From NCBI GenBank assembly GCA_041671645.1, contig JBAZBD010000001.1, positions 799,234 through 863,233 on the forward strand: a stretch of DNA of 64,000 nucleotides, written 5' to 3'. This DNA is from Patescibacteria group bacterium. Lineage in GTDB: Bacteria; Patescibacteriota; UBA1384; XYA2-FULL-43-10; 1-14-0-10-43-13. The notes beneath the pieces were generated by a model. The model searched no databases and had not been told where the DNA came from. It saw nothing but the letters and a program-made list of their open reading frames with translations. Of the stretch, positions 1 to 64,000 are shown piece after piece; position 1 is the first letter of the stretch, and every line of letters begins with the position of its first letter. The position numbers and the translations under genes were made by a program.

Positions 1-16
1 GCTGTTTTTTTGATAT

Positions 17-41
17 AAAAATCCCCGCCGGAGAGGCGAGG
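17..41 (-). terminator. Rho-independent terminator on the minus strand (CCTCGCC-TCTCC-GGCGGGG followed by AUUUUUAU), downstream of CDS 56..1720
   Basis: GC hairpin with one G·U pair, followed on the minus strand by a T-run. A 27-bp copy identical to it lies at 1789..1815. Confidence 0.55.
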
Positions 42-55
42 AGAGGCAGGTAGTA

Positions 56-1720
56 TCAAACGCGTCTGGCGTTAAAACGCCATTGAATCATCAAGTGAAT
101 TCGCCTATAGAGTTTGATTGGCCGCTTGAGCGCCATTCTTAAATCATAGGGCAATTGTGAAAAAATGAGAATTTGCTTGCCACGATCACCAGCAGCGATA
201 ACAATTCTCTCAGCCCAGGCAGAGCCTAGACTTGGTGCATCGTCATGCCAACGAATTGACCCGGCTACCGAAAGGAGGAAAAAGTTTAGATCTAGCGATT
301 CTTTGCGGATACTTTCGAGCGCTTTCTTGGTCCTTTCAAAATCAAATTGAGTGATCGATCGCAAGATTATCCGCCATTTTTCCCTTGGCCAAGCATGCAA
401 TAGTTTGTGTAATTCTGAATCATTTTCGCAACGCAACAACGCTCCCGAAAAATCGAGTCGAAGTTCTCTTCTGATTCGACTGAGTGACTGAATCGCCTCC
501 TGACGGCCAAAAACTGTTTTTAATAGATTTCTGATCTTGTAGGTAGGCGGATTTTCGTTCAGAAAATCATTTGAAAAGAGCGGGTTCCTGGCCATACTGC
601 TGATCGCCAGGATTTCCATCGAGGAAAATCCCAGTTTGCGGAAATGCTCCTCAAGTATCTCCAGCACAGCTGGAAATATTTCAATATTGTGTTCTATCCA
701 AAGAATCCGCAGGATTTCTTTTCTGCGAGCTTCATCGCTAAACCAATAGCCCCAGCTTGTTGTAGCTTGGCCCCACCTCAGAAGAGCAAGATGGTTGAAA
801 TCTGAACGAGCGAAAGCGCTGACAACTTCATGCCGCCACAAGGGACGACGATGAAAATTCAGGGCGGACTCAAAAACCCATCCCAAAAACCGAGGTGTAA
901 CCTCAAACTCTTTGGCGTACCGAAGAATTTGAGTGATCTCGGCAATTGTCCCATAACGAGAACGAATTGGCTGAAGAGTAATCTCGGCAAATTCTGGTAC
1001 GGATAATCCGATAGACCGTACCAGGTCAATCGCCAATGATATCTCGGCCTCGTTCTCGGCAGAAGTATTTCGATAATAGTAGCCCGACCTAACAATATGC
1101 TTTAGAAAGGAGACAACTGTTTGGCCGCTAAAGCCTTCTGCATAAAATTGGTCGAAGAGAGATTTTGTTTTCTCATATCCCAAAGCCAGGGTTATGTAGC
1201 AGTATTCTCCCCTGCGATCGTTCCACGCCCTCTCAACATCCCAGTATTTTTGCAAAACCGGTGGTTCGGCAATATCGCTCGGCCTTGGCGCCAAAGCGAT
1301 CCCCCTTTCCATTTCATCTTCACGTTTTTGCTCTATAGCAATTATCAGCTTAGACAGAGGGACATGATGCCGAATGCAACTATGTGAGTAACGAAAATCT
1401 ATGGCTCGATGGACTAATTGACTTCGGCCGGTCGCAAGATACTCTGCGATATCGTCTCCATACCAAGTCAACCAAATATGTTCGTTGACGAGCTTGAGAA
1501 ACTCAACAAATATCGATTTACCATATTTGTTCTTGACTGTACTTAAGCTTTTTCTGGCCTCGTTGATGCCAGATTGCGATGGATGATAGTGGGAAACGAC
1601 ATACTCCACTACTTTATCAAAAATGTCATGCCATTCTGGAAGAAGGGCGGCGACGCCTTCAAACAGATTTTGGAATGCTTTTGTCCGAAGACAATCGTCT
1701 TTCCTGGGCATTGTGCTCAC
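56..1720 (-). CDS. Hypothetical cytoplasmic protein, 554 aa, Trp/Arg-rich, no TM segments, no recognisable motif
   Basis: Long uninterrupted ORF in frame with a plausible start. It is flanked on both sides by identical terminator hairpins. I could not assign a family by eye. Confidence 0.5.
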   Translation of the reverse strand: MSTMPRKDDCLRTKAFQNLFEGVAALLPEWHDIFDKVVEYVVSHYHPSQSGINEARKSLSTVKNKYGKSIFVEFLKLVNEHIWLTWYGDDIAEYLATGRSQLVHRAIDFRYSHSCIRHHVPLSKLIIAIEQKREDEMERGIALAPRPSDIAEPPVLQKYWDVERAWNDRRGEYCYITLALGYEKTKSLFDQFYAEGFSGQTVVSFLKHIVRSGYYYRNTSAENEAEISLAIDLVRSIGLSVPEFAEITLQPIRSRYGTIAEITQILRYAKEFEVTPRFLGWVFESALNFHRRPLWRHEVVSAFARSDFNHLALLRWGQATTSWGYWFSDEARRKEILRILWIEHNIEIFPAVLEILEEHFRKLGFSSMEILAISSMARNPLFSNDFLNENPPTYKIRNLLKTVFGRQEAIQSLSRIRRELRLDFSGALLRCENDSELHKLLHAWPREKWRIILRSITQFDFERTKKALESIRKESLDLNFFLLSVAGSIRWHDDAPSLGSAWAERIVIAAGDRGKQILIFSQLPYDLRMALKRPIKLYRRIHLMIQWRFNARRV

Positions 1721-1790
1721 CTCCTTCTAGATTTCAAAGTCATAATGGTGCTTATTACTTCATACCTTGTATCACGCTCAAAGTCAAAAT

Positions 1791-1815
1791 AAAAATCCCC
1801 GCCGGAGAGGCGAGG
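1791..1815 (-). terminator. Rho-independent terminator, identical copy of the one at 17..41, immediately downstream of the lipase-like gene
   Basis: Same 27-bp sequence ATAAAAATCCCCGCCGGAGAGGCGAGG (1789..1815) as 15..41. It sits 8 nt past the stop of CDS 1823..3607. Confidence 0.55.
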
Positions 1816-1822
1816 ATTAGAA

Positions 1823-3607
1823 TTAGCGCTTGTGCAATCCGGAAAATTTAATAGCCGGATATGCGCCACGAGTTCTAGTTTTTGGGGCAGAAAATCCGAC
1901 ACCTGGAATTGTTAGAACAAGATGTCGATCTACCTTGAGATTATTTCCATGATCATCCTGGTAACAGGCGTTTATAATGAAAGTTCGGGCCTGCAGATTT
2001 GGGCTCAAATCAGAGATCATCAAACTTCCGTCACAGGAGGCCAGCAGGGAAATACCTAACTCTTCAGTATCGCCTGGAGCGATAGCGAAATCCATTTCTA
2101 CTGGAGCTGAAGGAAACACCTCATCCGCAGCTATGCTGGGGTCGTACCAGCTGAGGTAGAGCCAATCGCCCGAACCATCATATTGGTCGAAGGTAATGCT
2201 TTTAACCAGGAGTTCGGAATTACCTCTATTGTTCAAAGCAATCGTCCAATTCCACTCGGTATCTGTGGGAGAGGCTTCTATCCTGGAGCTGGGAGTGATG
2301 GTCAATCCAAGCTGGCCGGTAGCGATCGGCCTAGCGTAATTAAGTAACTCCTTAACGCCACCATCGGTGTCTATCAACCCGTCATGGTCATGGATAGTCG
2401 TGATTTTAGTGATAGTTCCAAGAGTCATCTGGCGCAGATCGGTATGATCGGCTAAAGCACTTGCGTTCCCGACTATTAAGTCACTCCATGCTGCACCGGC
2501 TACCAATATGTAATTTACGTTTCCAAGCTGGACATTGGGCAAACCGGAATTTAGTTGAGTGAGAAAACTGCTATTAGCTGCGATCTGAGCGGTTGAGTAA
2601 GTATCGAATGCCGGCAAATATAGACCAGCACGAGCATTTTCCGGTTTATTGAGATAATCGTCCCTAAGATATGACATGATATTCTCAACTCTTCCCAATA
2701 TTGAGCCTTCGTTCGCCCCACAAATCGAGACGAAGGAACGAACATTTTTGGTAGCCTTGCAATATTCCAGAGCATAACGAGAGACCAGCGCTCCCATCGA
2801 ATGAGCCCAAATGTCCATTCGCCGATTTTTGATAGCTAGTACCTTGATACTGTACCCCAGATACCCGCCAGAACTCTCGATGTAGTCGCACCAGCTGTAT
2901 TCGTAGGCATAAATGTTGGAATACCTCTTGCTCGCAATGACTGCCTCGATAAGTCGATCAAAGACGTGCCTGGTGGCATTCCAACCATGAACAAGTATCA
3001 GATCATGGCCATTGGTCATATCGGGATTGGTATAAACCTGGACAAGATCCATTTTCCTTTCTGGCTTGGCCCAGCCCAACTTGCCTATCACGCCTGTGAC
3101 CTTTTTACCAAAGGTCGAGAAGGCTACTCGGTCAATGACGACTTTGGCACCCCATTTGAGGTACTCTGCCGAAGTCGCAGGCAATTTGCTGATCATAGCC
3201 CATTTACCATCTGACAGTTTGGTAAAAAATCCGTAGATGGCAGTGACGGCAGATGTCCTGCCGCCGTAGAGAAGCACTTCCGATGGAAGGTCGATAACTA
3301 TATCATCGTTGACCTCGGCAGAAACTGTAATAGTAACTTCTGGCTCTGACCCCACAGATTTGAAATTAGAAATCGCCGGAGTGCTAGTAGGAGTAGCACA
3401 GTCAATACGCACAGACGTATCTGACAAGAAAGTACCAGCGGGAACAGTGACAGTAATGCCACCGATTGATTTAGAACTGTCGATTTCGGAGTCGGCAGTG
3501 ACCTGAATTTGGCCGGAAGTGCCCGGCTTTGTCAGGTTAGTGCTATTGTTGGTGCCGCAACCGGCGACCAGAGTGACAAGTAACAATACGAAAAAGCAAC
3601 GTAACAA
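1823..3607 (-). CDS. Secreted lipoprotein with a lipase/esterase α/β-hydrolase domain (class-2 lipase-like: oxyanion LILVHGW, nucleophile elbow AHSMG) plus flanking β-sandwich domains
   Basis: N-terminal lipoprotein signal with lipobox LVAG|C. Motifs HGW...AHSMGA match the Ala-x-Ser-x-Gly variant known from Bacillus LipA-type lipases. 594 aa. Confidence 0.6.
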   Translation of the reverse strand: MLRCFFVLLLVTLVAGCGTNNSTNLTKPGTSGQIQVTADSEIDSSKSIGGITVTVPAGTFLSDTSVRIDCATPTSTPAISNFKSVGSEPEVTITVSAEVNDDIVIDLPSEVLLYGGRTSAVTAIYGFFTKLSDGKWAMISKLPATSAEYLKWGAKVVIDRVAFSTFGKKVTGVIGKLGWAKPERKMDLVQVYTNPDMTNGHDLILVHGWNATRHVFDRLIEAVIASKRYSNIYAYEYSWCDYIESSGGYLGYSIKVLAIKNRRMDIWAHSMGALVSRYALEYCKATKNVRSFVSICGANEGSILGRVENIMSYLRDDYLNKPENARAGLYLPAFDTYSTAQIAANSSFLTQLNSGLPNVQLGNVNYILVAGAAWSDLIVGNASALADHTDLRQMTLGTITKITTIHDHDGLIDTDGGVKELLNYARPIATGQLGLTITPSSRIEASPTDTEWNWTIALNNRGNSELLVKSITFDQYDGSGDWLYLSWYDPSIAADEVFPSAPVEMDFAIAPGDTEELGISLLASCDGSLMISDLSPNLQARTFIINACYQDDHGNNLKVDRHLVLTIPGVGFSAPKTRTRGAYPAIKFSGLHKR

Positions 3608-3687
3608 TTAGTACACCTCCAAAAAGAGATTTTCGTTGTCAAAGGACAACAATTAGTCTTATCTTAGAACAATAACTGGCTGATAGC

Positions 3688-3713
3688 AAACACCTCACAT
3701 ATGTGAGGTGTTT
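3688..3713. terminator. Perfect palindromic hairpin AAACACCTCACAT/ATGTGAGGTGTTT, at the 3' end of the VIT-like gene
   Basis: 26-nt perfect inverted repeat. It belongs to a three-member family with the hairpins at 33159..33184 and 62388..62413. Confidence 0.5.
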
Positions 3714-3720
3714 GGTTGCT

Positions 3721-4188
3721 TTAGAACGATGTTTTGATGAATTGACCGATAACGAATCCAATCACGATCACCACCATACCGATCAGGAGATGCTCAGAAA
3801 TCGTTTCCCATTTTTTATCTTTTGGCGCAATGATGTAGTTCAATAGACCAAGCAGTAATGTGCCCCAAGCAATACAGATGATGAGGGCAACCGTGGAGGA
3901 GAAAAAGGCCAGAGGGATTAGGAATGAGAGAGCGATCACTAACTTTGAGAAATAAGTGCTTAGGGTGGCTGTCCAAATTTCCTTCTTGGTGTGAGTTTCC
4001 TCAGATTCTTCAGAAATATGAATCCCCAAAGCGTCCGAAAAAGCATCGGCGAATGCAATAGTCAAAACGCCGCCGATTACGACCGCCCTAGTGGCATCGC
4101 TTGCAGTCAAGCCCACTATCAATCCGAGCGTTGTAATAATGCCAGAAGTAGCACCGAAGCTGAAACCGATTTTTGATGAGTGATCCAT
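3721..4188 (-). CDS. VIT1/CCC1-family (DUF125-like) membrane protein, putative metal ion transporter
   Basis: 155 aa with 4–5 TM helices. Motif GATSGIITTLGLIVG resembles the G-x-x-DG-hydrophobic-S/T signature of the VIT family. Confidence 0.4.
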   Translation of the reverse strand: MDHSSKIGFSFGATSGIITTLGLIVGLTASDATRAVVIGGVLTIAFADAFSDALGIHISEESEETHTKKEIWTATLSTYFSKLVIALSFLIPLAFFSSTVALIICIAWGTLLLGLLNYIIAPKDKKWETISEHLLIGMVVIVIGFVIGQFIKTSF

Positions 4189-4239
4189 GTGCCTCCCAAT
4201 AATTATGAGCTAACGTTTCCTATGATGTAATTGACTACG

Positions 4240-4262
4240 ACAATCGCCCCGTAAAAAGGGGC
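4240..4262. terminator. Hairpin TCGCCCC-GTAAAAA-GGGGCGA, probable terminator for the minus-strand tRNA-Pro
   Basis: Perfect 7-bp GC stem about 45 nt past the tRNA 3' end on the minus strand. Confidence 0.35.
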
Positions 4263-4304
4263 GACAATTTGAGTATCCAAAATATAAAGTGCGAATAATT
4301 GTGA

Positions 4305-4381
4305 TGGTCGGGGATGCGAGACTCGAACTCACGACCTCTCGGTCCCAAACCGAGCGCTCTACCAACTGAGCCAATCCCCGA
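4305..4381 (-). tRNA. tRNA-Pro (anticodon TGG)
   Basis: Reverse complement TCGGGGATTGGCTCAGTTGGTAGAGCGCTCGGTTTGGGACCGAGAGGTCGTGAGTTCGAGTCTCGCATCCCCGACCA. Cloverleaf folds. Anticodon loop TTTGGGA, 3' CCA encoded. Confidence 0.85.
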
Positions 4382-4446
4382 ACTAAATTATCTTACATTA
4401 AATCAAGAATTTTTTCAATCTTTTCGCGATATTTCTTTGGTATGAA

Positions 4447-6402
4447 CTATTCATACCTCAAAGCTTCCATCGGCGAAAGCTTGCTCGCTCGTCTAGCCGG
4501 ATACACACCAGCCAATAATGAGACTAATGTTGTGACCACAATCATTTCTAAGGCAAAGAGCATTGGGGTAGCGAATATATTGAGACTGCCATCAATTGAG
4601 CTAACCTGCATTAAATAATTGATCAGAGCATTGATCGATTCCCCAAAAATCCAAGCGCCAACAACGCCAGCGATAGAACCAGTCAGACCGAAAAGTAAAA
4701 CTTCATACTCAAAAATCTTTTTGATGTCTCGGTTCGTGGCACCGATCGCCTTCATCGTACCGACCTCGTGTGTCCTCTCAAGCAACGAAATGGTCATGAT
4801 ATTGATAATTCCAATCAAGGCAACCATCAGAGCCACACCGCCGATAATACCTAAGATTATTTCTGTGATAAAAAAGATCTTGTCGACTTTCTTGATTAGA
4901 TCAACGACAGAGGTGGTCTGATAGCCAAGGTCGTCGATAGCATCCCTGGCGGCCTCCACATGCTTCCGATCGCTCACTTTCGCCTTGAGAGAGCTATATA
5001 TCGTGGTCTCATTGATCTTGGCCAATTCGTCGATAGGTAGGAATATCGCCGCGACAAGTTCATCATTGGAAACCCCGACGATTTTCTTTTTTGAGGTAGT
5101 TTCGTGAATGCTGGTCAAATCATTTGTATCCTTCGGCACGACCAAAAACGTAAGGTCCACCGTCTTGTTCAAAGCTGATGTCGGCTCCTTGATATCAAAA
5201 TTTTTGAGTGCTGCTTTGGATATCACTATCTCGTCATTTTCATCAAAACCTTCGCCTGCCACGGCGTACACTCCTTCAAAGGAGAGGGCTGACGCCTCGA
5301 GACCATAGGCGATGACCTGCTGAGCGCTGCTATCAATGGCGATTCTGGCAGTCGAAGTGATCGAAGGACTGACTAGGGTCACGTTTTGCACGTTTTTGAG
5401 CTCGAGGAGGGCGGTCTGATCCAGATGTTTAGTCGAATTTTTGTCGACATTTACATTTATCGTAACGAGAGAATCAAGAGAGGCAAGCTGATTTGAGGTA
5501 ATATTTTGCAAACCCATCCCCAAAGAAACGAGGGTGACGATAGACCCAACCCCCAAAGCTACGCCCAAGGCCGTCAGAAGTGTCCGCATCTTTTTGCTTA
5601 TGAAATGAAGTCGGGAAATCCGCAATATTTCCAGAAAACGAAGAGAGCCCCTCTTCTTTGGCACAAAATATTTCAAGCCATCATCTTCTAGATTATCGGG
5701 TGCAAGCACGCTTCGGGTCGCTTCGCTTTTGACAATCTTGCCATCCTTCATATGCAAAATTTTGTCACCGTAGTGAAGAAAATCCGGATTGTGAGTAACT
5801 AAAACGACCGTCCTGCCCCACTTCGTGCTGATGGTTTTGATCATTCTCATGATTTCAAGCCCCGTCGGCTCGTCCAAATTGCCGGTTGGCTCGTCCACTA
5901 GCAAAATCCAAGGATTGGCGACCAGTGCTCTAGCGATGGCGATCCTTTGTTGCTGTCCCCCAGAGAGTTCCACGGGCTTGTGATTCGCGCGGTCGCTCAA
6001 TTCCACCACAGAGAGCAATTCGCTCGCCCGTACATAAGCTTTTTTGCGGTCAACTCCAGAGAGAATCAGAGGCATTGCGATATTATCAATGGCAGAAAGA
6101 GTAGGAATTAAATTAAATTGCTGGAAAACCATCCCGATTTTGGTCCGACGATATTCCGCGAGTTCTGCCTCGGAAAGTGTGTAGATGTTTTGGTCATGCA
6201 CCCAAACTTGGCCGGCGGTCGGCTTGTCCAGTCCTCCCATCAAGCTAAGCAGGGTCGTCTTGCCGCAACCAGACGGACCGTAAATGACAACAAACTCTCC
6301 CGGCATGATATCAGTCTCAACACCCTTCAAGGCTTCAATATATTGATCTCCTACAAAAAAAGTCTTCTCGAGACCGGAAATTTTGATCACTGGTTTAGTC
6401 AT
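4447..6402 (-). CDS. MacB/FtsX-type ABC transporter, fused N-terminal ATPase and C-terminal permease with a large extracytoplasmic loop
   Basis: Walker A GPSGCGKTT, ABC signature LSGGQQQRIAIARAL, Walker B LLVDEPT. Then one TM helix, a roughly 230-aa extracytoplasmic domain and three C-terminal TM helices (FtsX-like). Start taken at MTKPVIK, which has a GGAAGAGA RBS; the ORF track begins 28 codons earlier. Confidence 0.8.
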   Translation of the reverse strand: MTKPVIKISGLEKTFFVGDQYIEALKGVETDIMPGEFVVIYGPSGCGKTTLLSLMGGLDKPTAGQVWVHDQNIYTLSEAELAEYRRTKIGMVFQQFNLIPTLSAIDNIAMPLILSGVDRKKAYVRASELLSVVELSDRANHKPVELSGGQQQRIAIARALVANPWILLVDEPTGNLDEPTGLEIMRMIKTISTKWGRTVVLVTHNPDFLHYGDKILHMKDGKIVKSEATRSVLAPDNLEDDGLKYFVPKKRGSLRFLEILRISRLHFISKKMRTLLTALGVALGVGSIVTLVSLGMGLQNITSNQLASLDSLVTINVNVDKNSTKHLDQTALLELKNVQNVTLVSPSITSTARIAIDSSAQQVIAYGLEASALSFEGVYAVAGEGFDENDEIVISKAALKNFDIKEPTSALNKTVDLTFLVVPKDTNDLTSIHETTSKKKIVGVSNDELVAAIFLPIDELAKINETTIYSSLKAKVSDRKHVEAARDAIDDLGYQTTSVVDLIKKVDKIFFITEIILGIIGGVALMVALIGIINIMTISLLERTHEVGTMKAIGATNRDIKKIFEYEVLLFGLTGSIAGVVGAWIFGESINALINYLMQVSSIDGSLNIFATPMLFALEMIVVTTLVSLLAGVYPARRASKLSPMEALRYE

Positions 6403-56727: not shown

Positions 56728-58632
56728 ATGTCCAAAATCATCGGTATCGACTTAGGTACCACCAACTCAGCTGTCGCTATTATGGAAGGTGGCGAAGCCA
56801 AGATTATCACTTCCTCAGAAGGCGGACGAACCGTCCCCTCAATCGTGACTGAGACCAAAAAGGGCGACCGATTAGTCGGTCAATTGGCCAAGAGACAAGC
56901 TGTCACAAATGCAGAAAACACTGTTTTCTCGATCAAACGTTTCATCGGTCGTAAGTTCGACGATGCTGACGCACAGGCAGATATCAAGAAAATGCCTTAT
57001 GGCGCCAAGAAGGCCTCTGATGGATCGATCCGAGTCAGCATGATCGGTCAAGAGTACAGCCCACAAGAAATCTCTGCCTTCATCTTGCAGAAATTAAAGA
57101 CCGATGCTGAGACCTATCTCGGCGAGAAAGTAACAGAAGCCGTCATTACTGTGCCTGCCTATTTTAATGATGCTCAGCGCCAAGCGACCAAAGATGCTGG
57201 CAAAATTGCAGGTCTCGAAGTCAAAAGAATTATCAACGAGCCGACCGCGGCCGCTCTTGCTTACGGACTAGACAAACAGAAGAATGAAAAAATCGCTGTT
57301 TACGACCTCGGTGGCGGAACATTTGATATTACCATTTTGGAGCTGGGCGATGGCGTTTTCGAAGTCAAAGCAACCAACGGTGACACTCATCTCGGCGGCG
57401 ACGACTTTGATCAGCGAATCATGGACTACATTATCGATGAGTTCAAGAAGGATCAGGGCGTCGATCTACACGCCGACAAAGCAGCAGTCCAAAGAGTCAA
57501 GGAAGCAGCCGAAAAAGCCAAAATTGAGCTCTCGACCGCTCTTGAGACTGAAATCAACCTACCTTTCATCACCGCTGATGCCTCCGGTCCAAAACATTTG
57601 ACCCTGACAATCAAACGCGCTGATCTCGAAAAAATGGTTGGCGAGTTGATCGAAAAGACGATGAAGCCATGCCAGAAGGTCTTGGACGACGCTAAGATGA
57701 AAAAAGAGGATATCAATGAAGTGATCCTGGTCGGTGGCATGACACGTATGCCAGCCGTTCGTGAGGCAGTCAAGAAATTCTGGGGCAAAGAGCCAAACCA
57801 TTCCGTCAATCCTGACGAGGCCGTCGCTATCGGTGCCGCTATTCAGGGCGGAGTCTTGGCTGGAGATGTCAAAGATTTGCTCCTGCTAGACGTGACTCCA
57901 CTCTCTCTTGGAATCGAAACTTTGGGCGGTGTCTCGACCAAATTGATCGAGCGCAATACTACTATCCCAACCAGCAAATCACAGATTTTCTCTACCGCAG
58001 CTGACAATCAAACTTCTGTAGAAATTCATGTCTTGCAGGGCGAGCGCGAAATGGCCGCCGACAACAAGACGCTTGGCCGATTCATGCTTGATGGCATTCC
58101 ACCTGCCCCACGCGGCATTCCACAGGTCGAAGTTTCCTTCGACATTGACGCCAACGGCATTGTGAATGTCAAAGCTACCGACAAAGCAACCAACAAAGAG
58201 CAGAGAATCACTATTACTGCTTCGAGCGGACTATCTGAATCTGAAATTGAAAGAATGAGAAAAGAAGCCGAAGAGCATGCTGACGAAGACAAGAAGAAAA
58301 AAGAGGCTGTCGAAGTCAAAAATATGGCTGACACATTGATCTATACTGCTGAAAAGACACTAAAAGACGCAGGAGACAAAGTTGATTCTAACTTGAAATC
58401 TGATGTCGAGCAGAAAATCCAAGCCTTGAAGGACGTCAAAGACAAAGATAATCTCGAAGAGATCAAGACCCAGACAGAATCTCTCAGCACTGCTCTGCAG
58501 GAAATTGGCAAGAAGATGTACGAACAGGCTGCCAAAGAGCAACCAAAAGCCGACGGTGCGAAGGAAGAGGAAAAGGCCGAAGAACCCAAAAATAATCCGC
58601 CAGCTGGCGGAGATGAGCCAAAAGCTGAATAA
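56728..58632 (+). CDS. dnaK: Molecular chaperone DnaK (Hsp70)
   Basis: [10 protein letters not shown]…, DLGGGTFD, and a full Hsp70 architecture. 634 aa. Confidence 0.95.
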
Positions 58633-58646
58633 TTTGCTTCCATATT

Positions 58647-58672
58647 TGCCCTCTATTGCTTAGAGGGCAAGA
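58647..58672 (+). terminator. dnaK terminator hairpin (TTGCCCTCTA-ttgc-TTAGAGGGCAA)
   Basis: 10-bp stem 15 nt after the stop. Confidence 0.55.
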
Positions 58673-58748
58673 TGGAGTTAAAATTATAGAGATCTGGTTT
58701 TGTCCGATTTCAACTTAACATGGAGGGTCCCCTCAGGGGGAAAGTTTT

Positions 58749-59408
58749 GTGAATTTGTTTCGTAATCCTATCTTTATACTTTTCTTCGTCGTCGCCCTAA
58801 TCGTGTCGATCGTCTGGAGTTATATTTCGAACAAGAAAACTAATACTCCGGTCACGACCGAGACGACTGAGACGACAACAACAGACACACCCAAGGTGAC
58901 CAATCTGACAAACCTTGACCCTGTCGACTTCGACTCGACCTTGAAGGGATATCTCGATATCGCAGCCACTAAGTCAGCGGAGATCAACAAGGATTACAAG
59001 TTGGCCGATATCGAAGTAGAGATAGGCCAATCCCTCCAACCAGCCGACGCCACTATTCGATATGCGTACAATCTCGGGGCCACAGACACAAGCAATTGGA
59101 TAATTTCATTTGCCCAGGACACCGGCAGTTATGTTCGTTCGCTTATCCCAAGTGAGGATTATCTCGGCCACCCCAAGCAGATTGACACGACACTCTGGAA
59201 ATTTAATTACGTCACCGCTCTGCAATTGGCTGAGAAGAATGGCGGCCTCGAATACCGTGAGAAAAATTCTGACTTTTCCAGCGTCAAAATGAGTTTGAAA
59301 CATACTGGCGAAAAAGCCTGGCTCCTCTGGAGTGTGGAGTACAAAGGTACGACCAGCGGCCTAACTGTCCTAATCGACGCAAACTCAGGTGACAAAGTCA
59401 CTCAATAA
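58749..59408 (+). CDS. Hypothetical membrane-anchored extracytoplasmic protein (219 aa) inserted between dnaK and dnaJ
   Basis: GTG start with a GGGGGAAAG RBS. N-terminal TM helix, Thr/Glu-rich linker, globular C-terminal domain. Confidence 0.5.
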   Translation: MNLFRNPIFILFFVVALIVSIVWSYISNKKTNTPVTTETTETTTTDTPKVTNLTNLDPVDFDSTLKGYLDIAATKSAEINKDYKLADIEVEIGQSLQPADATIRYAYNLGATDTSNWIISFAQDTGSYVRSLIPSEDYLGHPKQIDTTLWKFNYVTALQLAEKNGGLEYREKNSDFSSVKMSLKHTGEKAWLLWSVEYKGTTSGLTVLIDANSGDKVTQ

Positions 59409-59493
59409 AGCAGTAATATATAAGCTTATAAGTCCGATAAGCGCTCTGCTACTTGCTTACCAACTTAGGATTTATAGCTAATTGCTTATTTTT

Positions 59494-60144
59494 ATGTCAA
59501 CAGATTATTACAAAACTTTGGGTGTCTCAAAATCGGCCTCGGCCGAGGAAATCAAAAAAGCTTATCGAAAGCTTGCTTTGGAGCACCATCCTGATCGAGG
59601 CGGCGGCAACAATTCCGACGCCAAGTTCAAGGAGGTCAACGAGGCCTATCAGGTCCTCTCTGACCCCGAGAAACGCAAGACATACGATCAGTTTGGCGAT
59701 GCCGCCTTCAAAAACGGTGGAGCTGGGGCTGGAGGCTTTGGCGGATATCGACAGGGCGGATTCCAGGGCGACTTTTCTGATTTTGACTTCTCTGGATTCG
59801 GATTTGGTGGAGGAATTGGAGATATTTTTGAAGACTTTTTCGGCGCCCAGATGTCTCAGGTCCAAGCCGAATTACAAATTTCCCCTGCTCAGGCCGTACT
59901 TGGGGATAAAGTTTCCGTCCAGATCAATGGCGAGAATCTGGAGTTCTCTCTTCCCGCAGGCACAAACGATGGCACTTCATTCCGTTTTCAGGGCAAGGGT
60001 CGTGCAACACGAAATGGCCGCAAAGGAGATCTCATCCTAACAATCAAAATTGTAATGCCAAAACACCTGACAAAGGAACAGCAAGAACTCTGGCAACGTC
60101 TCCGCGACGAAGAATCCAAGAAAAAAGGTTGGTGGGGCGCTTAG
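59494..60144 (+). CDS. dnaJ: J-domain co-chaperone (short DnaJ/CbpA-like: J domain plus Gly/Phe region, no CxxCxGxG zinc finger)
   Basis: DYYKTLGV…HPD tripeptide…G/F-rich segment. Only about 217 aa. ATG at 59494; the ORF track begins at an upstream TTG. Confidence 0.75.
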
Positions 60145-60354: not shown

Positions 60355-60864
60355 GTGCAGCTTCCTAGTGTGGATGTTTTTATCGGGTTGTTATTCTTAG
60401 TCGGCATCGCCTACGGCTTTATTTTGCAACGAGAAAAAACGATCACGACACTGATTTCTGTCTACATCGGGCTGGTCGTTGCATCGAGCTTCTCCGGAAC
60501 AGTATTTGACTTCTTCAATGGCAACAAGGTGATTGCCAATCAGATTTGGATCAGAGGCAACGCTTCAAATCCGACAATAGCGATCGTAATATTCTTGATC
60601 ACTACTTTCCTCGTCTCGGGAGCAATCAACTCAAAATCAAAAAAAGGTGACGGCAGTATTTCTCTCCTCGAGACGATTGTCTACAGCGCTCTGATGATGG
60701 CCCTAATCCTCTCCTCCATCTTGGGATTCCTCCCCGAAGCGACCAGAACCCACTATATCGAAACTTCTATGTCCGCAAAATATCTTTGGAATATGCGGAC
60801 ATTATTTGTAGTTTTACCCCCGATCATGTTGGTCTTCCTGAATTGGAAAAGAAAAGAGAAATAG
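60355..60864 (+). CDS. CvpA-like (colicin V production family) polytopic membrane protein
   Basis: GTG start with a GAGGGG RBS. 4-TM profile and an N-terminus (VDVFIGLLFLVGIAYGF…) reminiscent of CvpA. Tentative. Confidence 0.4.
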   Translation: MQLPSVDVFIGLLFLVGIAYGFILQREKTITTLISVYIGLVVASSFSGTVFDFFNGNKVIANQIWIRGNASNPTIAIVIFLITTFLVSGAINSKSKKGDGSISLLETIVYSALMMALILSSILGFLPEATRTHYIETSMSAKYLWNMRTLFVVLPPIMLVFLNWKRKEK

Positions 60865-60978
60865 CAGAAAATTATTACTTATTAGTTCTTAATTTTTATT
60901 CAATTATTAATTAATAATTATAAATTGATTAGAAATTAAGCCGAAGGCTCCCCTTCGGGGGAAATCAATTATTAGAAA

Positions 60979-61350
60979 TTGAGGAATATGCTTTTACTTC
61001 GTTGGATCTTAAATACTTTGGTTCTTTTGCTAGTTAGCTACCTTGTGCCTGGTGTAAAATTTTCAGGGTTTTGGGCCGCTTTGATCACTGCACTAGTCTT
61101 AGGTTTACTGAACGCTCTAGTAAGACCGCTGATCATCTTACTCACCTTGCCTGTCAATTTCCTGACCCTTGGTTTCTTCACTTTGGTCATCAACGCTCTC
61201 ATGTTCTGGCTCGCCAGCACCATCGTCAAAGGATTTGATATCGCAGGATTCTGGCCCGCTTTCATCGGCGCTTTGGTCTATTCGATCATCATCATGATCA
61301 TAAATATGATGACACTCAAACAACCGCCTAAGCAAACGATCAAAAAATAG
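60979..61350 (+). CDS. DUF360 / phage-holin-family-4-like small membrane protein
   Basis: 123 aa, 4 TM. Pattern GxxxAL.TALVLGLLNALVRPL…LTLGFFTLVINALMFWLAS is typical of Phage_holin_4_2-family proteins, which are widespread as chromosomal genes. Confidence 0.5.
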   Translation: MRNMLLLRWILNTLVLLLVSYLVPGVKFSGFWAALITALVLGLLNALVRPLIILLTLPVNFLTLGFFTLVINALMFWLASTIVKGFDIAGFWPAFIGALVYSIIIMIINMMTLKQPPKQTIKK

Positions 61351-61649: not shown

Positions 61650-62240
61650 ATGACCACATTATCAGTAGCACAAGTTGCAGAAACAGGTGCCCTTGAAGCT
61701 GGCGTAATTTATAATTATGCGACCAGCGCCGCTATCAAAGCGGCTCGACTACGACTTGCTAACATGCGCGATCAGTTGGCAGGAATTATCGCTGAAACAG
61801 ATTTGTCCGATACCGCACATGGTGATGTTGACGCAGGTGTCGTGAATGATGCGATACAGTGCGGCGCCCTTTTGACAGCGATCGACAATCTTGACTTTGA
61901 GATTAGCAATCCGAATCTCATAATAGTCGACTGGATGGACCACGGGCCAGAACCCAAGGTTGTCCCCGGGACGGAAATCACCGCCCTTTTGGATGGAGAA
62001 GAAAAGTCCTGGATATTCCTGGATTCGCTGGACTTGACGTACGGAGAGCATTCGCCAGAGATTACCAGCCGATTAATTACAATTAGTAGCACCATCGGCG
62101 AAGCGATCTTCGGCAGTTCAGCCGAAGATGAGATTACCATTCTGAAGCCCATCAGAGGGCAAAGGAACAGAAAGGTGAAAATCCTTTCAATCGAACCGTG
62201 GCCACCCCGAGCCACAAAAAAACGCAGTAACAAAGATTAA
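61650..62240 (+). CDS. GreA/GreB-family-like protein (FKBP-like C-terminal domain) with a divergent N-terminal region
   Basis: C-terminal …ITISSTIGEAIFGSSAEDEITI…RGQRNRKVKILSIE resembles the GreA/Rnk C-terminal domain. The N-terminus is predicted helical but is not the canonical Gre coiled-coil. Confidence 0.4.
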   Translation: MTTLSVAQVAETGALEAGVIYNYATSAAIKAARLRLANMRDQLAGIIAETDLSDTAHGDVDAGVVNDAIQCGALLTAIDNLDFEISNPNLIIVDWMDHGPEPKVVPGTEITALLDGEEKSWIFLDSLDLTYGEHSPEITSRLITISSTIGEAIFGSSAEDEITILKPIRGQRNRKVKILSIEPWPPRATKKRSNKD

Positions 62241-62270: not shown

Positions 62271-62304
62271 GGCACCGTCCCCAAGACGGTGCCTCGCTTT
62301 TTTT
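62271..62304 (+). terminator. Rho-independent terminator (GGCACCGTC-cccaa-GACGGTGCC followed by TCGCTTTTTTT)
   Basis: 9-bp GC stem followed by a T-run, 30 nt after the stop at 62240. Confidence 0.75.
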
Positions 62305-62387: not shown

Positions 62388-62413
62388 AAACGCCTCACAT
62401 ATGTGAGGCGTTT
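62388..62413. terminator. Perfect palindromic hairpin AAACGCCTCACAT/ATGTGAGGCGTTT, at the 3' end of the cohesin-like gene
   Basis: 26-nt perfect inverted repeat. Differs from the 3688..3713 copy only by a compensatory A/G:T/C pair change. Confidence 0.5.
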
Positions 62414-62450: not shown

Positions 62451-63812
62451 TTAGTTGAAATGGTTAATATCGTTGTTATTGTCCACGACAGGATTCTCTG
62501 TTTCTGGAGTCGGAGTCGAAATTGGAGGTGCAGTTGAGGTAAAGGTGGAAATTGGGGTAGCTGTGATTGTAGCAGGGGTGGATCCTTGAGCGCGGCCTGT
62601 CATTTTCAGATCTATTTTTCTGTTTCGATAGAGAAAGAATCCCAGCAATAGCAATCCGAGTAAAAGAGCGACGCTGCTCCAAAACCAAGGGTTCTGAAGT
62701 AATCCGGAAGACCAATCATTCTGAATCACGATTGGAGTTGCATAGGCTTTCTCTGGATCGACCTGAAAGGTAAGTTCGTCTGCCGCTTTGGTCGTCTCTG
62801 TCGCTGTAGTAGAGAGTGCATATGCTTTATGGACGCCCGCTTCTATGCCGTCGCTGACTGTGATACTCCATTTGCCCTCTGCATCGGTTGTGACAGATTT
62901 TGTGATCAGTGTGCTAAAGACATAGACTGTCACAAGAGAGTTCGGCTTGGATATACCCTTAAAGGTTAGATTGGTTAGAGATTTTTTGTCTTGAATGTTG
63001 GCGACAACTGCTTGGTCAGAATTTAATAATATTGTGGTTTCTGAACTAGCGCTAATCTTTTTGATTTCTTTTTGAAATTTCTTCTCGCTATCTGGCATTG
63101 TCGGCGCGACTAGTACGGGCGCCTCTGCTGTAGCTGGAACTGGCGTCTCTGTCATGACGGCTGGTGTCTCTGCTGTCGCGGCGGGTGTCGTAGCAGCAGG
63201 GGTAGCAGTTGTGGCAGAGCTTGGAGTGGTGGTCTTTTTGGTTGTGCTTGGAGTTGTGGGTGTAGTATCGGCTGGGTTGGTAGCTGGGACATCTGGTGTT
63301 GTCGGAGTATCTGGTATCGGGTCTGGGATGACTGGTGCTGCCGCTATGGTGTAGCTACCTCCTGAGACAGAAGACAAAATATTGGCTGGTTCATCGCCTG
63401 AGCTGACGACTTGGCCACCCGACAAGGAAATTGTGGCTGTGCCGGCATTCGTGCCTTTGACTACCAAAGTGTAAACGGTAATGGTACCAACACCATCACC
63501 AGTCGAACCACAGCTGAAACTTAGCGATGGGGTGCTTGGGTCGGTAGTACACATAGAAACGGAGCCTTTGGTCAGGCTCACCACGGTCAAGTTGCTGACT
63601 GATACGCTTGCCTTGTAAACCGACATATTTTGGCCGCCGCCATCTGCAACGATACCAACTGAAAATTCCTCGCCGACAGTATGGCTACCTGTTGCTGAGC
63701 TCACCGAAATTGTGGCTGTGTTTGCTGCCCGTATAGGGGTAATTGCTCCAAAGATAGCAACTATCGCTGAGATAGTGACAATAGCACTAGTTTTTTGTAT
63801 TACGTTGAACAT
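62451..63812 (-). CDS. C-terminally membrane-anchored surface protein with an N-terminal cohesin-like domain, Pro/Thr-rich linker and an Ig/CarboxypepD_reg-like domain
   Basis: Signal peptide. A ~130-aa β-sandwich (ISVSSATGSHTVGEEFSVGIVADG…TGDGVGTITVYTLVVKGTNAGTATISLSGGQVV) fits the cohesin pattern. Then a PT-rich linker, a TM helix (WFWSSVALLLGLLLLGFFLY) and a cytoplasmic tail. ATG at 63812 with a GGGAG RBS; the ORF track starts at a GTG two codons upstream. Confidence 0.5.
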   Translation of the reverse strand: MFNVIQKTSAIVTISAIVAIFGAITPIRAANTATISVSSATGSHTVGEEFSVGIVADGGGQNMSVYKASVSVSNLTVVSLTKGSVSMCTTDPSTPSLSFSCGSTGDGVGTITVYTLVVKGTNAGTATISLSGGQVVSSGDEPANILSSVSGGSYTIAAAPVIPDPIPDTPTTPDVPATNPADTTPTTPSTTKKTTTPSSATTATPAATTPAATAETPAVMTETPVPATAEAPVLVAPTMPDSEKKFQKEIKKISASSETTILLNSDQAVVANIQDKKSLTNLTFKGISKPNSLVTVYVFSTLITKSVTTDAEGKWSITVSDGIEAGVHKAYALSTTATETTKAADELTFQVDPEKAYATPIVIQNDWSSGLLQNPWFWSSVALLLGLLLLGFFLYRNRKIDLKMTGRAQGSTPATITATPISTFTSTAPPISTPTPETENPVVDNNNDINHFN

Positions 63813-63826
63813 ATCCACTCCCTAAA

Positions 63827-64000
63827 TTATTTATTCCAGTTTGTAAGTAAGGTCGCAAAGTCTAGTTCATCCACAACCCTATCTCTATTGTAGTCAGCCA
63901 TTACATTCTTTGGTGCACCCCAGTTTCCAAGCATACTAGCAAAGTCAAGCTCATCGATGGCGCCATCATTATTTATATCGCCACTTTTGTGGATGATGAG
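63827..64000 (-). CDS. C-terminal end of a dockerin-containing protein (partial; the gene continues beyond the window)
   Basis: Translated C-terminus …GDINNDGAIDELDFASMLGNWGAPKNVMADYNRDRVVDELDFATLLTNWNK*. Two calcium-binding loops, each followed by a helix, form a canonical type-I-like dockerin. Confidence 0.6.
   Translation of the reverse strand, partial: LIIHKSGDINNDGAIDELDFASMLGNWGAPKNVMADYNRDRVVDELDFATLLTNWNK

Follow-up and report, generated by a model that had tools for sequence, protein, structure and literature searches.

Cellulosomes are the best-known setting of cohesin-dockerin pairs, and some of their anchoring scaffoldins carry a single cohesin or only a few, as in Clostridium thermocellum SdbA and OlpA/OlpC and in Ruminococcus flavefaciens ScaE. 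Scaffoldins are attached to the cell by S-layer homology (SLH) domains or through sortase and an LPxTG motif, and the dockerin proteins that they take up are carbohydrate-active enzymes or other scaffoldins bearing such enzymes. Cohesin folds also occur outside plant-cell-wall degradation, in the non-cellulosomal cohesin of Archaeoglobus fulgidus (2xdh) and in the cohesin-like modules of Clostridium perfringens glycoside hydrolases (2jh2, 2vo8 and 2w1n), where they serve protein-protein assembly in an archaeon and in a toxin/glycosidase system, respectively. Peer and colleagues reportedly described, in 2009, non-cellulosomal cohesins and dockerins in all domains of life. Here we describe two adjacent genes at the end of a 64-kb stretch of DNA from a Patescibacteria group bacterium (contig JBAZBD010000001.1; the whole stretch analysed is called the window), one encoding a membrane protein with an N-terminal cohesin domain, which we call the anchor, and the other a protein with a C-terminal dockerin, which we call the cargo.

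For the candidate phyla radiation (CPR), or Patescibacteria, our literature search retrieved no paper linking a cohesin domain to these taxa, the sole relevant item being the mention of a dockerin in PMC10633639. In that study, SEML1_0315 of the Saccharibacterium Southlakia epibionticum is a dockerin-containing protein of the envelope that proved essential, and a role in glycan targeting was speculated upon; the word "cohesin" occurs 0 times in the paper (Wang et al. 2023, PMC10633639). Judged by its description only, SEML1_0315 resembles the cargo proteins of the relatives described below in being a CPR surface protein made of Ig/fn3-like domains with a stated dockerin, and one of our dockerin/anchor pairs (L014) likewise comes from Candidatus (Ca.) Saccharibacteria. 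The genes beside SEML1_0315 encode an α/β hydrolase and a tRNA, and neither is a cohesin-anchor gene.

By analogy, the closest functional counterpart of the window anchor is the single-cohesin anchoring scaffoldin of the cellulosome. Both are secreted, cell-bound proteins that present a cohesin on a Pro/Thr-rich linker, with a partner whose C-terminal dockerin is, in our case, predicted to dock there. The likeness extends to the cohesin fold (TM-score 0.6-0.74) and to a two-calcium-loop dockerin with internal symmetry, and the solved cohesin-dockerin complexes 5n5p, 5m2o, 4dh2 and 3ul4 are among our fold matches. Unlike scaffoldins, the anchor is predicted to be held by a transmembrane helix near its C-terminus, with the tail in the cytoplasm; it belongs to a CPR host, has a cohesin too divergent for the Pfam Cohesin family (PF00963) and is encoded together with its cargo as a conserved adjacent pair; the cargos of its relatives, in contrast with scaffoldin partners, contain no detected carbohydrate-active enzyme module. 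The A. fulgidus cohesin was our fourth best fold match (E 8.7e-7, TM-score 0.65), consistent with the occurrence of non-cellulosomal cohesins across the domains of life. What separates the window locus from the A. fulgidus and C. perfringens modules is a dedicated transmembrane-anchored single-cohesin protein with a neighbouring cargo gene, found across several Patescibacteria lineages. The pair is therefore a non-cellulosomal, transmembrane-anchored variant of known cohesin-dockerin systems rather than a new principle, and we consider it likely that the cohesin of the anchor binds the dockerin encoded by the neighbouring gene.

The relationship of the N-terminal domain of the anchor to cohesins emerged at the level of profiles and structure. 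A word-index homologue search with this domain returned nothing, and single-sequence phmmer against the PDB gave chance matches only (E>0.2). With aa 26-163 of the 453-aa protein as the query, exhaustive HMMER scanning across 1.84 billion representatives recovered a cohesin-like family of 259 proteins at E<=1e-3, of which 35 reached E<=1e-10. When a family profile built from 45 domain sequences (A2, 138 positions) was run against the PDB, it matched the R. flavefaciens ScaB cohesins 5m2o_A (E 1.1e-4) and 5aoz_A (E 1.4e-4) over positions 15-134 of 138, followed by 5m2s_A at E 0.0076, with no further match below E 0.05. The same profile retrieved P0154 and P0156-P0159 at database-wide E-values of 1e-10 to 2e-4, and these proteins pass Pfam Cohesin on their own (27.4-34.3 bits vs. 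a cut-off of 24.1). The Pfam region coincides with the profile-matched region in P0154 and P0156-P0158, and the profile match in P0159 is fragmentary. PF00963 was also matched in 4 of the 100 closest full-length homologues.

The structural evidence pointed in the same direction. The AlphaFold2 (AF2) model of the domain was of high confidence (predicted local distance difference test, pLDDT, 95.5; predicted TM-score 0.87) and contained eleven β-strand segments by DSSP; solved cohesins are nine-stranded β-sandwiches (jelly-roll) of ~140 residues. In a Foldseek comparison with the PDB, ranks 1-40 were all cohesins and the first non-cohesin appeared at rank 41, with 5n5p_A as the best match (E 1.5e-7, TM-score 0.74, root-mean-square deviation 2.9 Å over 139 columns), and the full-length anchor model reproduced this ranking of cohesin folds. 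By profile homology and fold, then, the N-terminal domain of the anchor is a divergent subfamily of the cohesin superfamily.

The 57 visible residues of the cargo matched Pfam Dockerin_1 (PF00404) over aa 7-51 with 29.5 bits and E 8.6e-7, passing the gathering cut-off of 22.9; NCBIfam dockerin_GC scored 25 bits, under its cut-off of 29, and EF-hand families matched solely below their Pfam thresholds. The two calcium loops, DINNDGAIDELD and DYNRDRVVDELD, are of 12 residues each with D/N at positions 1, 3, 5, 9 and 12, and each is followed by a helix (DINNDGAIDELD by FASMLGNW and DYNRDRVVDELD by FATLLTNW). The dockerin halves form two 21-residue repeats with an identity of 12/21, which includes DELDFA..L.NW, a symmetry that, as in type I dockerins with symmetrical halves, would be compatible with a dual binding mode. 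As a protein query, the 57-aa dockerin gave no database match; it aligned over its full 57 aa with the C-termini of orthologous cargos. A sequence-only reading of the window had proposed a dockerin with two calcium loops at the end of this edge protein, which the Pfam score and the canonical loops bear out.

The side-by-side arrangement that the same reading had remarked on recurs well beyond the window. A dockerin-ending gene lies immediately 5' of the cohesin-transmembrane gene, on the same strand, in 8 further loci, which are independent because each anchor represents a separate cluster at 50% identity. This count covers every locus with visible upstream sequence (L007, whose upstream stretch is too short, is left out), and in each 12-17-kb locus the neighbour is the sole strong dockerin match. 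The pairs come from a Patescibacteria group bacterium (L002/L011; cargo 533 aa, anchor 486 aa), from Ca. Berkelbacteria (L004, 2455 and 440 aa; L005/L006/L013, 670 and 348 aa; L012, about 606 and about 349 aa), from Ca. Saccharibacteria (L014, about 1091 and about 503 aa) and from GCA_023229825.1, a distant member with 28% identity (L009, 301 and 252 aa). The other two are in Logan SRR34572458 (L003) and JGI 3300036978 (L008), where the cargo is cut at the contig end, with 286 and 83 aa visible, beside anchors of 483 and 434 aa, respectively. Named relatives of the anchor belong to Ca. Berkelbacteria (P0004 and P0007), an unclassified Patescibacteria metagenome-assembled genome (P0009), Ca. 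Paceibacterota (P0153) and Ca. Saccharibacteria (L014), which suggests that the family is restricted to CPR, most of the 259 homologues carrying no taxon name.

Fusions within the family tie the two domains together as well. Using a dockerin hidden Markov model (HMM) built from the cargo C-termini of six relatives, we found a C-terminal dockerin downstream of one or two cohesin-family domains in the same chain in 27 of the 150 family representatives (18%), and Pfam Dockerin_1 was found in 16 of the top 100 homologues. These fusions suggest adaptor-like architectures of the kind expected of a working cohesin-dockerin network. Multiple cohesin-family domains were seen in relatives that include P0006, P0015, P0018, P0021, P0041, P0058 and P0123, some relatives having 2-3 full tandem copies; P0021 (796 aa) contains 6 evenly spaced partial cohesin-family repeats and P0123 (2003 aa) contains 11, with a period of ~112-115 aa. 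The family thus appears to include multi-cohesin, scaffoldin-like proteins.

Sequence motifs on the two sides of the pair also sort together. A D/N-GGGQ loop is near-invariant in the close subfamily of cohesins (DGGGQ, aa 57-61, in the window anchor). In the window and L004 cohesins this loop is followed by SV(Y/A)(K/R)A and the paired dockerins carry DELDFA, and the remaining pairs combine TSFGA cohesins with DNDDFT dockerins. The pattern may reflect co-variation at the interface or shared ancestry alone.

Across the relatives, the N-terminal parts of the cargo proteins differ and the C-terminal dockerin is constant. The dockerin is mostly preceded by a PKD-like domain and a strand of the form L.V(Y/H)K.G, which LIIHKSG in the window fits. 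Upstream of it, Big_6 and a K319L-like PKD domain were found in L002, fn3 and Glug in L004, a Rax2/Reg_prop propeller and Glug in L014, Bact_surface_Ig-like and CHB_HEX_C_1 in L009, and in L012 a Vgb_lyase/SGL-type β-propeller (231 bits), the only enzyme-family match among the cargos. No carbohydrate-active enzyme domain, whether glycoside hydrolase (GH) or carbohydrate-binding module (CBM), was detected in the relatives' cargo proteins. Because the cargo is variable and non-enzymatic, adhesion, host contact or a surface layer is favoured over polysaccharide breakdown, and the cargo is probably an adhesin or a protein that binds the host or a substrate, and not an enzyme that degrades polysaccharides. 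An N-terminal hydrophobic export segment was present in 4 of the 5 relatives' cargo open reading frames (ORFs) examined. The 670-aa cargo of L005 (5733..7968, plus strand) lacks a hydrophobic segment at its N-terminus, and gene calling places a separate 72-aa gene shortly before it, so it may be a split or frameshifted gene or have a mis-called start. In L009, a gene at 1..5056 (plus strand) encodes a surface protein of >2055 aa with Big_1, Big_5 and Bact_surface_Ig-like domains directly upstream of the dockerin and anchor genes, making a three-gene surface cluster.

The remainder of the anchor suggests a membrane-anchored protein. Hydropathy identified two hydrophobic segments only, at aa 9-27 and aa 376-395, and AlphaFold modelling of the full-length anchor, in which 11 orthologues were used, gave a helix (2-21), a β-sandwich (33-157), a disordered stretch (165-240), a second β-sandwich (254-361), a further helix (375-404) and a disordered tail. 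The linker was predicted to be disordered, with pLDDT 39-52 at aa 171-230, rising toward both ends, and without secondary structure. The Ig-like domain had pLDDT 83-90 across most of its length in this model and matched Pfam Big_13 over aa 280-352 at 25.9 bits, slightly below the cut-off of 27; Big_13 was found in 12 of 100 homologues with a best E of 2.8e-10. These findings agree with the earlier proposal of a PT linker, an Ig-like domain and a C-terminal transmembrane anchor with a tail, which hydropathy, composition, the full-length model and the recurrence of this layout in 11 orthologues now support. An LPxTG-type sorting motif was absent from the anchor in a motif search, SLH repeats had no Pfam or NCBIfam match, no glycoside hydrolase, CBM, SLH or sortase signals were present, and NCBIfam yielded low-complexity noise only. 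All anchors examined, including the distant P0153, have an N-terminal signal sequence and a C-terminal transmembrane helix followed by basic residues; the orthologue linkers occupy the same place and are of low complexity and variable length, and the tails differ in length and sequence.

The signal peptide, together with the positive-inside rule that would place RNRK..K in the cytoplasm, leads us to infer a type I topology with the cohesin outermost, the linker and then the Ig-like stalk beneath it, and the membrane helix leading into the cytoplasmic tail; signal-peptide cleavage is predicted between IRA and AN. The two genes would then constitute a surface-tethering module of a CPR bacterium, with both proteins exported. 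The anchor would be exported by Sec and lose its signal peptide, and the C-terminal helix would retain it in the cytoplasmic membrane, leaving RNRK and the disordered tail inside and the single cohesin projected on the Ig-like stalk and the ~80-residue Pro/Thr linker. If extended, this linker may be long enough to cross a Gram-positive-like envelope. The dockerin of the cargo would dock non-covalently and in a calcium-dependent manner into the neighbour's cohesin, so that a large protein would be displayed on the cell surface.

Both genes lie on the minus strand in our open-frame reading of the window, and their spacing is operon-like, the intergenic gap in relatives being 16-45 nt according to gene calls. 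No terminator-like site was found between the cargo and anchor genes in a terminator scan, and the two genes are probably co-transcribed. The 453-aa ATG product of the anchor gene exactly matches a public record, NCBI MFA6963933.1, annotated "Ig-like domain-containing protein" and encoded on an 867,751-bp contig to which the DnaK and the GreA-like protein of the window also belong, and the 455-aa product of a GTG two codons earlier is unrecorded; an exact-protein look-up also found the anchor on a 2.46-kb Logan contig. Beyond the anchor stop, a perfect 26-nt palindrome is a candidate transcription terminator for the gene pair, although it may instead be a protein-binding site. The consensus terminator scan did not call this palindrome, which has no long T run. 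The coordinates of these features are collected in Table 1.

Several observations weigh against the docking we propose. Pfam Cohesin did not match the anchor, as either the 455- or the 453-aa protein, even at E<=10, so that we base the assignment as a cohesin on profile homology and fold, and the sequence identity of the domain to solved cohesins is just 10-20%. The N-terminal cohesin-like β-sandwich of the sequence-only reading thus held on structural grounds, by the model confidence and the 40 top-ranked PDB cohesins, and by the ScaB profile match, and failed as a direct PF00963 match. With <10 pairs, co-variation between the dockerin helix and the cohesin strand is inseparable from phylogeny. 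The window cargo gene is cut by the window edge, which puts its N-terminal modules and its intactness outside our view, and the absence of a cohesin-like gene next to SEML1_0315 in S. epibionticum indicates that adjacency of the pair is not universal in CPR. The silent PF00963 and the low identity would suit a β-sandwich that has the cohesin fold without binding dockerins and is instead structural, adhesive or glycan-binding, its neighbour being co-expressed and using its dockerin to bind a cell-wall glycan or some other protein. Dockerins lacking known cohesin partners are indeed common outside cellulosomal bacteria, and the CLIPPER adhesin domain 9ifr, YcnI 8um6 and GH123 N-domains occur lower in the fold list. 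However, the 40 best fold matches are all cohesins and the profile is homologous to solved ones, while the dockerin-to-cohesin order is strict in the 8 further loci despite divergent cargo and 18% of the family representatives carry dockerin fusions. Since a functional cohesin-dockerin link predicts conserved gene order and dockerin fusions, as observed, we regard a non-binding β-sandwich as improbable. A gene fragment or pseudogene remnant at the window edge, which would leave the pair non-functional here, is less probable still and would surprise us greatly. Although only 57 codons are in view and the upstream part was not retrieved from any collection (neither a peptide scan of genome contigs nor an exact 52-mer search of metagenome contigs found it), no stop interrupts the frame as far as the window edge, all calcium-ligand positions are intact and an identical copy exists in the independent read set SRR18595301. 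The segment is moreover colinear with the C-termini of full-length orthologues of 301-2455 aa, including the preceding β-strand L.VHKSG.

Docking between the neighbours is also compatible with wider partnerships, in which the cohesin would be a general hub for several dockerin proteins from other loci of the 868-kb genome, or in which other cohesins would be the main targets of the neighbour's dockerin. A cohesin type of the classical systems can usually bind many of the dockerins of its own species, the family holds adaptor-like cohesin+dockerin and multi-cohesin proteins that suggest networks, and our view of the genome is confined to 64 kb. In that view, however, a six-frame scan found one dockerin and one clear cohesin-family match, in adjoining genes, and no others, and the one-to-one adjacency, conserved with short gaps in different lineages, points to the neighbour as the primary partner at least; we therefore hold such a hub to be possible, if on the doubtful side. 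The possibility that the pair is a minimal cellulosome, with an anchoring scaffoldin displaying a polysaccharide-degrading enzyme, draws on R. flavefaciens scaffoldin cohesins being the nearest solved structures and on the cellulosomal associations of such pairs in general. We give it very little credence. Neither GH, CBM nor SLH occurs in the anchor, the orthologous cargos are built of PKD/Ig, β-propeller, Glug and fn3 domains, and the host is a small-genome CPR bacterium; as no carbohydrate-active enzyme domain was detected in the relatives' cargo, we take the system not to be a cellulosome. The term "mini-scaffoldin", applied to the locus in the sequence-only reading, is accordingly best taken to mean a single-cohesin anchoring protein. 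The predicted tether between anchor and neighbouring cargo thus remains our preferred interpretation.

Table 1. Features of the cohesin-dockerin gene pair and of other parts of the 64-kb window. Residue numbers refer to the 453-aa anchor.
Feature	Coordinates	Strand	Residues	Basis or remarks
Cargo gene, 3' end	63827..64000	-		last 57 codons (LIIHKSGDINNDGAIDELDFASMLGNWGAPKNVMADYNRDRVVDELDFATLLTNWNK), open over 64000->63830, and TAA stop at 63829-63827; gene runs past the window edge
Intergenic spacer, 14 nt	63813..63826	-		Shine-Dalgarno-like AGGGAG, read from sequence
Anchor gene, 453 codons	63812->62451	-		ATG start at 63812
Signal peptide, MFNVIQKTSAIVTISAIVAIFGAITPIRA then AN	63726..63812	-	1-29	hydropathy peak aa 9-27; AF2 helix 2-21
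Divergent cohesin domain	63324..63725	-	30-163	profile homology and fold
Pro/Thr/Ala-rich linker	63084..63323	-	164-243	composition T 30%, P 21%, A 17%
Ig-like β-sandwich "stalk", Big_13-like	62730..63053	-	254-361	Pfam and AF2
C-terminal transmembrane helix, WFWSSVALLLGLLLLGFFLY then RNRK	62628..62687	-	376-395	hydropathy 2.14; model helix 375-404
Predicted cytoplasmic tail and stop	62451..62627	-	396-453	T/P/N-rich, disordered, pLDDT <50
Perfect 26-nt palindrome, AAACGCCTCACATATGTGAGGCGTTT	62388..62413	.		37 nt beyond the anchor stop, between the convergent GreA-like and cohesin genes
Terminator of plus-strand gene	62271..62293	+		canonical hairpin and T run
196-aa protein, GreA-like	61650..62240	+		convergent with the cohesin gene
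Two small membrane proteins	60355..61350	+		
dnaK, 219-aa protein and DnaJ genes, in order	56728..60144	+		
Giant ORF, 6627 aa	7390..27273	-		
fn3-like ORF, 239 aa	6667..7386	-		directly after the giant ORF

Elsewhere in the window, the 6627-aa ORF contains fn3, NHL, ten Flg_new_2 (divergent InlB B-repeat) units, Flg_new and two DUF285 regions, which make it a probable further large protein of the surface or adhesin type. We considered it as a dockerin cargo and rejected it, as it has no dockerin. The 239-aa ORF that follows it was likewise rejected as a second window cohesin; it gave a 14-bit match to the family HMM and is fn3-like according to Pfam. The 196-aa protein convergent with the cohesin gene matched the GreA/GreB C-terminal family at 19 bits vs. 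a cut-off of 26.9, and is annotated as a GreA/GreB family factor by JGI and as hypothetical by NCBI. Of the two small membrane proteins, a Colicin_V-production-like match was sub-threshold (22.8 bits) and a Phage_holin_4_2 match was strong (124.8 bits). The chaperone genes encode a DnaK of 634 aa, an unannotated 219-aa secreted or transmembrane protein and a short DnaJ of 220 aa that has a J domain and a partial C-terminal domain, with the zinc-finger region not detected; no grpE lies between dnaK and the DnaJ gene.

CPR bacteria make up much of bacterial diversity and live, for the most part, attached to other cells, and how they assemble and retain their surface proteins is largely unexplained. 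The cohesin subfamily described here is missed by standard annotation, NCBI naming the anchor for its Ig-like domain and Pfam Cohesin remaining silent. If the pair binds, it would provide a simple, testable mechanism by which surface proteins, variable and giant ones included, could be displayed non-covalently, and would suggest candidate partners for dockerin proteins flagged as essential in a cultivated Saccharibacterium. Binding would also mean that cohesin-dockerin biology reaches into a setting with transmembrane anchoring and no enzymes, and could supply orthogonal pairs for protein engineering. More tentatively, and with rather more doubt than confidence, docking on transmembrane single-cohesin anchors may be a general way in which CPR bacteria mount large, fast-evolving surface proteins such as adhesins, host-contact proteins and giant proteins, with interchangeable cargo and with cohesin+dockerin adaptors building larger assemblies, in effect a "surface-ome" scaffold of non-cellulosomal type. 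Were this the case, it would offer a missing partner for SEML1_0315-like proteins and would bear on how these episymbionts attach to their hosts.

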